A stretch of 64,000 nt of DNA from Mobula hypostoma. Its lineage: Eukaryota. The notes beneath the pieces were generated by a model. That model was not told the origin of the DNA. It saw only the letters and a program-made list of their open reading frames with translations, and ran no database searches. How positions within the stretch are numbered: the stretch's first letter is position 1; each line of letters opens with the position of its first letter. A program made the position numbers and the translations under genes. Below, in pieces: positions 1,623 through 52,422 of this stretch. The stretch spans positions 69,628,001 through 69,692,000 of the forward strand of contig NC_086097.1 of the NCBI RefSeq assembly GCF_963921235.1. The letters are read 5' to 3'.

Positions 1623-4600
1623 GTAATGTATACTTGTCCACTAAGTTAAAAATGTGCAGATGTCAAGATGACTCAATGTGCAGGTGCATCATATGTAATG
1701 GTGCTGATCTATGTCTGTCAAGAAAGTGTAAACCAGACCTTGTTCCTCTTTTTGATTTCAGCATTGGGATGTATGTTAACTTAGTTCAACAGAGTGTAGA
1801 ATTAGAACATAGAACAGTCCAGCACAGGAACAGGTCCTCCAGCCTACTATGTTGTGACGAATTAATTTAATTTAGTAATCAAATGCAATGTAAAACAACT
1901 CCTTTTCACCTGTACAATGTCCATATCCTTCCGTTTTCTGCACATTCATTCAATTGATACTCTCTACTGAATTTGTTCTACCTCTACCTCTCTCAGTGCA
2001 TCCCAAGTAACTACCCCATGTTTAAAAAATGCCTCCTTTATACACACCCCCTCACCTTAAATGTATGCCCTTCAGAGTTACACGATTCAACCCTTGGTAA
2101 AAGATATTGACTATCTCTGGCTCTCATAAACTTGTGAACCTCTATCAGATTTCCCCTCAATCTCTGTTACTCCAGAGAAAACAACCCAAATTTGTCCAAC
2201 CTCTCCTTACAGCACATGCTCCCTAATCCAGGCAGCAGCATCCTGGTAGCCTTTTCTGCACCCTCTCCAAAGCTTCAACATCCTTCTGATAATGGGGCAA
2301 CTGCAACTGAATGACGTGCTCCAGATGCTGCTAGCTAGAGTTTTATAAAACTGCAAGATAGCCTTCTGACTCTTGAACTTAGTTTCTTGACTAATAAAGA
2401 CAAAAATGTCCTATGCCTTCATCTCCATCCTATCAACCCGTATAGCCATTTTCAATGAGTTATGCACTTGGACCCTAAGATGCCTTTGCCTATCAACACT
2501 GTTAAGGGTCTTGCCATTTACAGTGTCCTGTTTCTTTACATTTGATCTTAAAATTGGAACATTTCATGAATGGCTGAGTTAAACCCCATCTATTATTTCT
2601 TCCTTTAGATCTATATCCTGTTGTATCCTTTGGCAGACTTTTACACTATCCACATCTCCAGTTTTTGTATTGTCTGTAAACCTACTAACCCATACATCTG
2701 CGTATTCATCAAAGCAACACACGCAAAATGCTGGAGCAACTCACTAGGCCAGGCAGCATCTATGGAAAGGAGTAACAGTTGACGTTTTGGGTTGAGACCC
2801 TTCATCAGGATGTTTTCATCTTGGTCATCTGTATATATCAAAAACCGCAGAGGTCCCAATAAGGATCCCTATGGAATACCACCAGTCACTGACTTCTCTG
2901 TCCCCTCCACCACTACCCTCTGCCTTCAATGGACAAACCAGCTCTGAATACAAACAGCCAATTCATTGAGGGTCCCATGCGTCTCAATCTTCTGGATGAG
3001 CCTCCTGTAAGGAGCCTTATCAAATGCCTTACTAAAATCTATGAAGCTCTACCTGCAGCCACAATCCTTGCTCATGGACTGTTAGTCACATTCTTGTCAG
3101 AGAGGAGGCTATGTAGCATCTACACCAGGACCAGCAGATTCAAAAACAGTTACCTTCCCCAAGTAGTAAGGCTGATCAACACCTGCACCCACTAACCCAT
3201 TTCTCCACACCTCAACCACCACTACTTAATCATTTCCTGTCAGTCATCTTATGTACAGACACACCTGTACCTGGTGTCACTTTATGGACATACAGTACAA
3301 GCACTCAATGTTTTTAAGCTATCTTACACGTGTGTGTGTGTGTATGTATATGTGCGTACACGCACATGTGTGTGCGCAAATGTTTGGGCACCCCGGTCAA
3401 AATTTCTGTTACTGTGAATAGCTAAGTGAGTAAAAGATGAACTGATTTCCAAAAGGCATAAAGTTAAAGATGGCACATTTTTTTAATATTTTAAGCAAGA
3501 TTACTGTTTTATTTCCACCTTTTACAGTTTCAAAATAACAAAAAAGGAAAAGGGCCCGAAGCAAAAGTTTGGGCACCCTGCATGGCAGTACTTAGTAACA
3601 CCCCCTTTGGCAAGTATCACAGCTTGTAAACGTTTTTGTAGCCAGCTAAGAGTCTTTCAATTCTTGTTTGGGGGATTTTCGCCCATTCTTCCTTGCAAAA
3701 GGCTTCTAGTTCTGTGAGATTCTTGGGCCATCTTGCATGCACTGCTCTTTTGAGGTCTATCCACAGACTCTCAATGATGTTTAGATCAGGGGACTGTGAG
3801 GGCCATGGCAAAACCTTCAGCTTATGCCTCTTGAGGTAGTACATTGTGGATTTTGAGGTGTGTTTAGGATCATTATCCTGTTGTAGAAGCCATCCTCTTT
3901 TCATCTTCAGCTTTTTTACAGACAGTGTGATGTTTGCTTCCAGAATTTGCTGGCATTTAATTGAATACCTTCTTCTCTCTACCAGTAAATGTTCCCCGTG
4001 CCACTGGCTGCAACACAAGCCCAAAGCATGATCAATCCACCCCCGTGCTTAACAGTTGGAGAGGGGTTCTTTTCATGAAATTCTGCTCCTTTTTTCTCCA
4101 AATGTACCTTTGCTCATTGCAGCCAAAGAGTTCTATTTTAACTTCATCAGTCCACAGGACTTGTTTCCAAAATGCATCAGGCTTGTTTAGCTGTTCCTGT
4201 GAACCTTTTGAATAGAACTCAAAAGAGCAGTGCATGCAAGACATCCCAAGAATCTCACAGAACTAGAAGCCTTTTGCAAGGAAGAATGGGCAAAAATCCC
4301 CCAAACAAGAATTGAAAGACTCTTAGCTGGCTACAAAAAGCGTTTACAAGCTGTGATACTTGCTAAAAGAGGTGTTACTATGTACTGACAATGCAGGGTG
4401 CCCAAACTTTTGCTTTGGGCCCTTTTCCTTTTTTGATATTTTGAAACTGTAAAAGATGGAAATAAAAAAGTAATCTTGCTTAAAATATTAAAGAAATGCG
4501 TCATCTTTAACTTTATGCCTCTTTTGGAAATTAGTTGATCTTTTACTCACTTAGCTATTTGCAGTAATTTTAAATTTTAACCAGGGGTGCCCAAACTTTC

Positions 4601-7600
4601 GCATGCCACTGTGTGTGTGTGTGTGTGTGTGTGTGTATGTATATATACACACCGTGTTTTTTAAAATTATTTTTGTGATCAATATCTTGCTTTTTTTTGT
4701 ATCTGGAGTAACAATTATTTTGTTCTCCTTTACAAGTGTATACTGGAAATGACATTAAACAATGTTGAACATTGAATGGGTTACTTTTGTTACCTCCTTG
4801 AAAAACTCACTTAAGATTGTAAGGCTGACTTGCCCTGCACAAAGACATGCTCTCTGTCCCTAATTAGGCCATGGTTTTCCAACTGCTCATAAATCGTATT
4901 CATAAGCATCCTCTTCAGCAGCTTCCTCACCACTGAGGTGAAACTCATAGTAAGTTTTCAGGATTATCCCTATCTCCATTCTTGAGTAATGGAGTAACAT
5001 TTATTATCAAAATACATATAAGTTACCATATGCTTCCTTGGAATTCATTTCCTTGCAAGCATTTTCTGGAAAAAATTACAATAGACTTTACTGTAAATTT
5101 ATTCTAACCCATATGTACTCTAAGGCTTTCCTATCCATGAACCTGTCCAAATGACTTATAAATGTTGTACTGTGGCTGCCTCTACCACTTTCACTGACAG
5201 CTTGTTCTACAGACCCACATCCTCCCCATGAAAAGCTTGCCTGCCTGCTTCCTATTAATTATTCCCTTCTCAATTTAAACCTGTGCTATCTAGTTTTTAG
5301 GCTCCCATGTCTAGGAGAGTCCATCTTACCTGTGTTCTCGTGATTTTATAAGCCTCTGTAAAGACACCCTTTGCAAATGAGCAGGCTTGTAAGGATGTGA
5401 CACTGACGTCCCATTTCCATGAAACAGTGCTTCAAGAGCTTTGATCAAGTAATGGAAGTATTTTAAATTAAAATGATTGATTAAAAAAAGAAATTGTTTT
5501 ATGAGGCTGTAAGAAGTAAACTTGTGTCATATGTACTTTTGCATATTCCAGCCCAGAATGGCTTGTTTGTCCATTTTAAATGTACTGTTAGTGATGAACA
5601 TATTTGTATGTTGGTTACATTTACAAGAAGAATGGTACAGAATAATAGTTCTCTTTAGTTGCTTGGTTTTTAAGCTTGTATGGGTATTTCTATAAAAACA
5701 TTCTGAGAATTTGATAGTGTTGATAATATGTGTCATCAACAGTTGTTTGTTTGTAACTGAAATACGTTTCCAAGGGATATGTGAATTGTTTTTATCTATA
5801 TATTGACAGAAAGCAGAAGTGAGTTCTTGGAAAAGTTGCAACGAGCTCGAAGTCAAGTCAAACCAGCAACCAGTAGCCAACCCATTCTCACTGCACCAGG
5901 GCCAACAAAGCTCACAGTAGGCAACTGGTCTCTCACTTGTTTGAAAGAAGGAGAAATTGCAATACACAATTCTGATGGTCAACAGGCCACTATATTGAAA
6001 GAAGATCTCCCTGGATTTGTGTTTGAGTCAAATCGTGGGACAAAACATTCATTTACTGCAGAGACATCACTCGGTAAACTCAGAAGTATTGTTTATTGTA
6101 GCAACGTTTGTTCCTGTGTTCACAAAATCTTTTTCTTGAAGGAAGAATATTTTTGTTTGAATTAGTTTCTTGCTTTGCAGGATCAGAATTTGTTGCTGGC
6201 TGGACTGGCAAAAGAGGAAGAAAGTTGAAATCAAAGCTGGAGAAAACGAAACAAAAGGTGAGTGTCGTCATAAGAAATTAAATGTATTTTATGGCTAAAT
6301 GGATTATATCTACATGTTAGGAACATCAAAGATGCTAATAGTTTTTAATCAGTATTTAGTTTCTTGATGTTAACTCTTGGAGAATGAAGCTAATTTATAG
6401 AGGCAAAAGTCCAGATGAATGAGAAGTGAGCAGTGTAGCACTTTATGCATGGTGTGAACTTATGCAGCTCTGCTTAGAGTTATGCTCATATTTAAAGAAG
6501 TTTGTGGTTGACACCATGATCAAGAATTTTTCAGAGAGCAGTGAGGAGTGCATTATTTTCAGTTAAACTCTGTTTTTCTTCCTTTTGAATAAAGTTAGAG
6601 GCATAGCTAAGAAAAAAATCAAAATGTTTTAGATCGGTATTTTATCAGTCTTATCTGTGAATCTGACCATACCTATTCCAAAATATTTTTATTAATGCAC
6701 CTACTCAATAATCAGAAGTTTTTGTTTTGGAGGCTCGATGAGGTGATTTTCCAAAATATTTTCTCCTGAATTTAAAATCTCAGCATTAAATAGCTAAACT
6801 TTTCTTCACAAACAGAAGAAAATCTGCAGATGCTGGAAATCCAAGCAACACACACAAAATGTTGGAGGGACTGCTGTTGAGTTAAGAAATGGCAAGGGTA
6901 AAAGGACCCTAATGGCAGTTGTATACAGGTCTCCAAACAGCAGTCAGGATGTGGATTGCAAATTACAGCAGGAGATAGAAAAGGCGTGTCAGAAGGGCAA
7001 TGTCATGATAATTGTTGGGGATTTTAACATGAAAGTGGATTGGGAAAACCAGGCCAGTACTGGACCTCGAGAGAGAATTTGTAGAATGTCTAAGGGATGG
7101 CTTTTTAGAACAGCTTGTTGTTGAGCTGGATTGGGTATTGTGCAATAAACCGGAGGTGATAAGAGAGCTTAAGGTTAAGGAACCCTTGGGTAACAGTGAT
7201 CACAATATGATTGAGTCCACATTGAAATTTGAGAAGGAGAAACTAAATTCCAATGTGTTGGTATTTCAGTTGAATAAAGGAAATTACAAAGGCAAGAGAG
7301 ATGAACTGGCCAAGGTTGACTGGAAAGAGACACTATCAGGAAGAACAGCAGAGCAGCAATAGCTGAAGTTACTGCGAAAAATGAGGGAAGTGAAAGACAG
7401 ATATATTCCAAATAAGAAATTTTTGAGTGGAAGAAGGACACTACCTTGGCTGACAAATGAAGTCAGAGCCAAAGTAAAAAGCAAAAGAGAGAGCATACAA
7501 GGAAGCCAAAGCTAGTGGGAAATCAGAGGATTGGGAAGCTTTTAAAAACTTGCAGAAGGAAACTAAGAAGCTCATTAGAAAGGAAAAGATAAATTATGAA

Positions 7601-52069: not shown

Positions 52070-52422
52070 CAACACACATAAAAGTTGCTGGTGAGCGCAT
52101 GTTCATGCCATCAGGTTGGAGGCTACCCAGATGGATAAGGTGTTGTTCCTCCAACCTGAGTGGACCTTCTGCCAATCTTGTCCAGCTCTTGGCTCCATCC
52201 CTCCCCCTCCTGTCTTCTCCTATCATTTTGGATCCCCCCCCCCCACCACTTTCAAATCTCTTACTAGCTCTTCTTTCAGATAGTCCTGACAAATGGTCTC
52301 GGCCCGAAATGCTGACTGTACCTCTTCCTAGAGATGCTGCCTGGCCTGCTGCGTTCACCAGCAACTTTTATGTGTGTTGCTTGAAATTCCAGCATCTGCA
52401 GATTTCCTTGTGTTTGCACTTT
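52070..52422. mobile_element. Penelope-like element with inverted GIY-YIG C-terminal remnant and degenerate hammerhead
   Basis: 13-bp TSD tagatattccaga at 52057-52069 and 52423-52435; RLEEQHLIHLGSLQPDGMN on -. Confidence 0.85.

Follow-up and report, generated by a model that had tools for sequence, protein, structure and literature searches.

A family of short insertions in a 64,000-nt stretch of the Mobula hypostoma genome (NCBI RefSeq assembly GCF_963921235.1, contig NC_086097.1, positions 69,628,001 to 69,692,000 of the forward strand; hereafter the window, with positions counted from its first letter) very probably consists of decaying terminal-repeat fragments, likely derived from an autonomous, endonuclease-bearing Penelope-like element (PLE), whose RNA would carry a minimal type-I hammerhead ribozyme (min-HHR), predicted to require dimer formation or the help of a protein for cleavage. 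The copies are best read as dead-on-arrival pieces of the element's pseudo-long terminal repeat (pLTR), not as a separate family driven by its ribozyme. The argument starts from direct observation of the copies, their target-site duplications (TSDs), the geometry of their arms, the hammerhead consensus and its decay; comparisons with the literature draw on excerpts of the cited papers.

Short insertions of one family

The six young insertions (at 2713, 6808/9346, 20872, 42398, 46552 and 52070) can all be aligned with one another, both in a self-BLAST of the window and in an nhmmer search with a profile built from seven arms (E = 5e-44 to 5e-4), bearing out the count of at least six copies given by a first-pass annotation made from the letters alone. 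They are 100-350 bp long, lie within and downstream of a HECTD1-like gene, and amount to six in 64 kb, or about one per 10.7 kb, close to the density of one per 10 kb estimated earlier. The two older relatives that had also been proposed fared differently: the one at 10545 was a true but weak match to the profile (E = 9e-4), whereas the one at 17210 was absent from the nhmmer matches in the window at E <= 1 and gave alignment scores of only 22-27, and is therefore kept as tentative.

Four of the six young insertions are flanked by TSDs of 13-14 bp, as annotated, three of them exact and one (20858/21092, 14 bp) with a single mismatch. This number is above chance: exact matches of at least 13 bp occurred in 0 of 1500 random window pairs, and, when the repeats were required to abut both ends, in 2 of 20000. 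No TSD was found at 2713 or at 46552, the latter insertion replacing ~110 bp of an older long interspersed nuclear element (LINE). The pieces at 6808 and 9346 represent a single arm, interrupted by a later 2.47-kb LINE (presumably of CR1 type), and the insertion at 42398 lies inside a LINE-like copy; the two families were therefore mobile in overlapping periods.

A minimal hammerhead consensus, restored from outside the window

To the 521-bp stretch 51980-52500 around the insertion at 52070, public contigs from three sequencing runs were aligned: 89,770 from organism A (run X1), 60,953 from organism B (run X5) and 25,976 from organism C (run X9). The contigs of run X1 cover the coding piece, the untranslated region (UTR) and the pLTR of this insertion alike. 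At 52280-52313, the majority letters in all three organisms restore G8, G10.1 and the ACGU/GUC end, and the positions repaired in this way are exactly those at which the window's own copy (52270) breaks the motif. Sequences external to the window thus confirm the consensus pooled by the first-pass annotation, with its CUGANGA and GAAA boxes, ACGU palindrome and GUC triplet. The left junction of the 52070 insertion was also found on one contig of organism B, which places the insertion before the split of organisms A and B.

The majority consensus has both catalytic boxes with an NUH triplet, an extra base after A9, a G10.1-C11.1 pair (changed to A-U in two of six aligned window copies), a palindromic 15.2-16.2 and no loop 3. 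These are all of the min-HHR features in the published description as excerpted (Cervera and De la Pena 2014, PMC4209133), in agreement with the proposed assignment to the minimal type-I hammerheads of PLE pLTRs. A structural descriptor of the min-HHR matched the window once (46553-46590) and 150 simulated 64-kb windows not at all. This match is the only intact core in 11 arms examined, the other ten having a core that is broken or missing.

Similar cores elsewhere allowed the stems to be assessed further. The exact family motif had no match in metagenome and viral contigs, and a looser core was found at 25 loci in metagenome contigs of other organisms, none of them blastn-similar to the 52070 element. 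After three duplicates were dropped, stem I reached at least 3 bp in 9 of the 22 distinct matches and stem II at least 4 bp in 13, as compared with control means of 1.2 and 3.5 and maxima of 6 and 10 in 1000 trials. The stems therefore covary across unrelated loci clearly above controls, in loci that belong to other families. Within the window, the older subfamily at 10545 has both sides changed at two stem I pairs.

Arm ends, tails and 5' ends

Three of the young insertions are inverted composites of two head-to-head arms, with ends lying 65-75 nt and ~104 nt past the predicted cut (measured with the 52270 copy as reference). The tail found at one end is 40 nt long, equal to the difference between the two arm ends. 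A pLTR with an inverted truncated arm and a tail of 30-40 bp is a published PLE feature: an "inverted 5'-truncated copy" and a "30- to 40-bp extension (tail)" at one end have been reported (Craig et al. 2021, PMC8557442), the inverted truncated copy with a one-sided tail was also described by Arkhipova et al. 2013 (PMC3846280), and two start sites of the reverse transcriptase (RT) explain the tail in a PLE (Frangieh et al. 2024, PMC11167929). All three young composites show it.

Nine 5' ends were mapped, with alignment ends good to a few bases and with three copies only ~80% like the reference. Six lie 22-43 nt upstream of the cut, four of these coming from two insertions; of the other three, one coincides with the cut (42398), one marks an internal joint, and one extends into the UTR. 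Because six of the nine ends are upstream of the ribozyme, most templates were apparently uncleaved. The start of 42398 was dropped as evidence of cleavage, being one case of nine with a three-letter ambiguity between triplet and TSD; likewise, loose contig ends at 52314 were set aside as a cleavage signal, as they reflect alignment clipping at mismatches to the window copy. For run X20, tentatively taken to be RNA, no position with an accumulation of ends was reported; as contigs, its sequences carry no information on RNA ends, strand or level. We consider it unlikely that the stubs are run-off cDNAs from internal RT starts in which most 5' ends mark a transcription start a short way upstream of the ribozyme and a minority, like 42398, begin at the cut as fossils of germ-line cleavage; if this were so, ends of the 42398 type would testify to cutting by a vertebrate PLE min-HHR in vivo.

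For PLEs, published work describes nicking and priming at the target by the protein that the element itself encodes, RT starts at internal sites, and second arms in inverted orientation (PMC8557442, PMC3846280, PMC11167929), and a similar course may be envisaged for the copies studied here. The GIY-YIG endonuclease of the element would nick the target with a stagger of 13-14 nt, and RT would begin ~65 or ~104 nt beyond the cut, at either of two internal positions, yielding the optional 40-nt tail. It would copy mostly uncleaved RNA, usually stopping just upstream of the ribozyme, and a second, inverted arm would often be added from the other end of the target. Once inserted, solo or opposite-strand ribozymes would have no partner in the same transcript and would decay neutrally.

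The pattern of decay agrees with neutral drift, as mismatches occur at 27 of 81 CpG positions, compared with 72 of 761 other positions. Selection on the AUAU palindrome at 46553 need not be invoked, since two CpG deaminations explain it. In addition, paired arms lie on opposite strands and no locus has two ribozymes on the same strand, so that a cis dimer is impossible at any of the loci.

A likely parent element

Between its TSDs, the 52070 insertion contains an inverted pLTR piece, an inverted stretch encoding a peptide (P0001) and, in sense orientation, a pyrimidine-rich stretch followed by ribozyme and tail. The peptide is identical at 12 of 21 positions to residues 1023-1043 of a 1049-aa open reading frame (ORF) at a metagenome locus, L002 (pairwise E = 4e-4). 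This ORF has matches to the Pfam families RVT_1 and GIY-YIG, and its start holds the same hammerhead core. Letters from loose contig ends extend P0001 in frame by seven codons to a stop, followed by a pyrimidine run, and the L002 ORF ends six codons past the same Asn. As judged from these alignments, the insertion likely carries the C-terminal codons of a PLE GIY-YIG endonuclease. The sole phmmer match to P0001 (P0002) proved to be an unrelated repeat protein, and a tblastn search of the window for an RT of this PLE type found none.

The metagenome loci have features of their own. The intact ORF of L002 (260-3406, plus strand; core at 323-352) likely starts at a codon within the first catalytic box; a relative, P0004, begins at the same codon, and an ATG in this register is also present in those window copies that have U at position 7. 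At another locus (L004), a GIY-YIG-like frame occupies 3400-4154 on the minus strand; ~70 bases downstream of its end is a minimal hammerhead core, whose stem II has 6 bp.

Several observations weigh against the derivation from an endonuclease-bearing PLE with a min-HHR. The P0001 peptide has only ~21 residues and no true relative in protein searches, Pfam, PHROGs, PDB or Atlas. With a three-sequence PLE profile it ranked first of 2875 window segments, yet with an E-value of 1.5, and the RVT_1 and GIY-YIG matches of L002 fall just below the curated cut-offs. No contig was seen to bridge the stop codon, UTR and ribozyme of one parent. On the side of the ribozyme, a covariance-model scan of the window with Rfam, as the first-pass annotation had suggested, produced no match to a hammerhead family at E <= 5. 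Single copies show no folding advantage over shuffles (z from -1.41 to +0.46), and helix covariation among the six window copies is weak, with double changes at three of eight stem pairs and a score reached by 33 of 500 shuffles. Hammerhead models with a stem III may miss min-HHRs. By every testable feature except the strength of this covariation, the family is, as far as sequence comparison goes, a PLE min-HHR.

Alternative explanations

The first-pass annotation had described the insertions as non-autonomous ribozyme-bearing retro-copies. That they are TSD-flanked retro-copies is upheld; a non-autonomous family overstates the case, because the 5' ends are variable, one copy has endonuclease-like coding sequence and a 3' UTR, and most cores are lost. 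They resemble products of truncation or run-off from an autonomous PLE, inert once inserted. A self-standing family, either similar to short interspersed nuclear elements or made of monomers of retrozymes of the non-LTR type (LTR, long terminal repeat), which would be transcribed, cleave themselves or circularise, and borrow the PLE enzyme, is improbable. The clustering of six of nine 5' ends upstream of the cut does resemble a unit length, contig depth is greater over the pLTR than over the coding piece (although depth does not equal copy number), and pLTR-derived retrozymes occur in vertebrates, including one chondrichthyan (bioRxiv 10.64898/2026.07.22.740005). However, self-BLAST of the window detected no family members arranged head to tail in tandem, one copy carries probable coding sequence, PLE integration itself gives rise to such inverted arms and tails, and the core is lost in 10 of 11 arms.

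It is very improbable that the resemblance to a hammerhead is incidental, reflecting the conserved end of a repeat or the opening codons of an ORF without any ribozyme. The absence of an Rfam match and the weak covariation within the window would fit such an account, as would the ATG within the first box at which the L002 and P0004 ORFs start. The majority monomer, moreover, folds more favourably with its catalytic boxes paired (-12.1 vs -8.1 kcal/mol), which is also consistent with the need for a partner or a protein. Against it stand the full set of published min-HHR features, the lack of any descriptor match in simulated windows and the covariation of stems across unrelated loci, and a PLE hammerhead that overlaps an ORF start has been reported to cleave with protein help (PMC11167929). 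Finally, co-option of one or more copies to cut or regulate the HECTD1-like pre-mRNA can be practically dismissed: several copies are intronic and inverted arms could form hairpins, but the sense-strand intronic arms (9425 and 20956) have broken cores, the sole intact core (46553) lies ~9 kb beyond the last exon found and has no intact same-strand partner in the window, and the CpG decay indicates neutral drift.

Comparison with known systems

Min-HHRs in the pLTRs of metazoan PLEs, including those of vertebrates, have been published (PMC4209133), with thousands per vertebrate genome and low activity in vitro. The family described here shares with them type I topology, the lack of loop 3, the palindromic 15.2-16.2, the extra base between A9 and 10.1, the G10.1-C11.1 pair, a short helix I and the occurrence mostly as solo copies in truncated PLEs. 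It differs from the Schistosoma families of that study in having a helix II of 4 bp instead of 7-8 bp. Fish, coelacanth, Xenopus and reptiles are named in the excerpted text; rays are not among them.

As in the insertions of endonuclease-bearing (EN+) PLEs (PMC8557442, PMC3846280), we found 5' truncation, an inverted truncated arm, a tail of 30-40 bp at one end, and some copies with TSDs next to others with microhomology joints and no TSD. Unlike the 8-10 bp TSDs of rotifer EN+ PLEs in these reports, those found here span 13-14 bp, and the window contains no full ORF. In the Anolis Poseidon element PAc (PMC11167929), a tail is likewise delimited by a pair of end points, ~65-105 nt past the ribozyme, and unprocessed RNA is the main template in vitro, as the 5' ends suggest for the present family; in the same report as excerpted, no RNA ends were seen at the ribozyme cut in Anolis. 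PAc is active in vitro, whereas activity is a prediction for our family, and the start region is AC-rich in PAc, whereas the ribozyme strand is UG-rich at that place here.

Hammerhead retrozymes have been reported for one chondrichthyan (bioRxiv 10.64898/2026.07.22.740005). Like the animal non-LTR retrozymes of that report, the present copies have a type-I hammerhead, derive from pLTRs and occur as dispersed monomers; unlike them, they include no tandem unit with at least two complete ribozymes in the window. By this tandem criterion, and as judged within the window, the family is not a retrozyme. We found no description of it in a ray or shark in the literature, though subscription papers, Repbase and supplements (including that of PMC4209133) may name it. 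The finding extends the set of genomes replete with PLE minimal hammerheads by one vertebrate lineage and leaves existing models as they are; the abundance of the family would allow a well-powered map of 5' ends relative to the cut site, which bears on cleavage in vivo.

Features of the window

Coordinates of the insertions, their parts and their TSDs. Strand is given relative to the window.
Position	Strand	Feature	Remarks
2713..2812	-	pLTR stub, tail-less end	hammerhead with G12 lost; no TSD
6794..6807	+	left TSD, 14 bp	pairs with 9528
6808..6871	-	tailed 3' end, minus arm of inverted composite
6872..9345	+	2.47-kb LINE-like copy	later insertion into minus arm; outside the family
9346..9424	-	remainder of minus arm	decayed hammerhead
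9425..9527	+	plus arm, tail-less end	decayed hammerhead
9528..9541	+	right TSD, 14 bp
10541..10646	-	older-subfamily arm	decayed core; two stem I pairs changed on both sides
10936..10995	+	inverted partner arm of the 10545 relative
17205..17414	.	much older inverted pair, tentative	weak alignments only
20858..20871	+	left TSD, 14 bp	one mismatch to right copy
20872..20957	-	minus arm, tail-less end	5' end within first catalytic box
20956..21091	+	plus arm with 40-nt tail (21052-21091)	G8 lost, cut site deleted
21092..21105	+	right TSD
42385..42397	+	left TSD, 13 bp	within LINE-like copy
42398..42495	-	tailed stub	5' end at about the predicted cut site; 3 letters common with TSD
42496..42508	+	right TSD, 13 bp
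46551..46691	+	tailed stub	no TSD; on ~110-bp LINE deletion
46553..46590	+	only formally intact minimal hammerhead	palindrome AUAU, triplet AUC, predicted cut after 46585
52057..52069	+	left TSD, 13 bp
52070..52099	-	short inverted pLTR piece, tail-less end
52100..52163	-	likely C-terminal codons of PLE GIY-YIG endonuclease	P0001
52165..52280	+	pyrimidine-rich stretch	likely 3' UTR of parent element (putative role)
52281..52422	+	broken hammerhead (52281-52317), pLTR body, tail
52423..52435	+	right TSD, 13 bp

The host gene was recognised from plus-strand exons at ~1.4 to 37.4 kb (1400-37423) with Sad1_UNC, MIB_HERC2 and HECT matches, an order that we take to mark HECTD1; its introns contain the copies between 2713 and 21091. 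A 51-bp direct repeat (10415-10465 and 10827-10877, 96% identical) flanks the older 10545 arm and a LINE-end fragment. Elsewhere in the window, two ~90% identical copies of another repeat with internal inverted ends occur at 3376-4614 and 39349-40962, and a tandem repeat with a period of ~69 bases occupies the window end (63636-64000).

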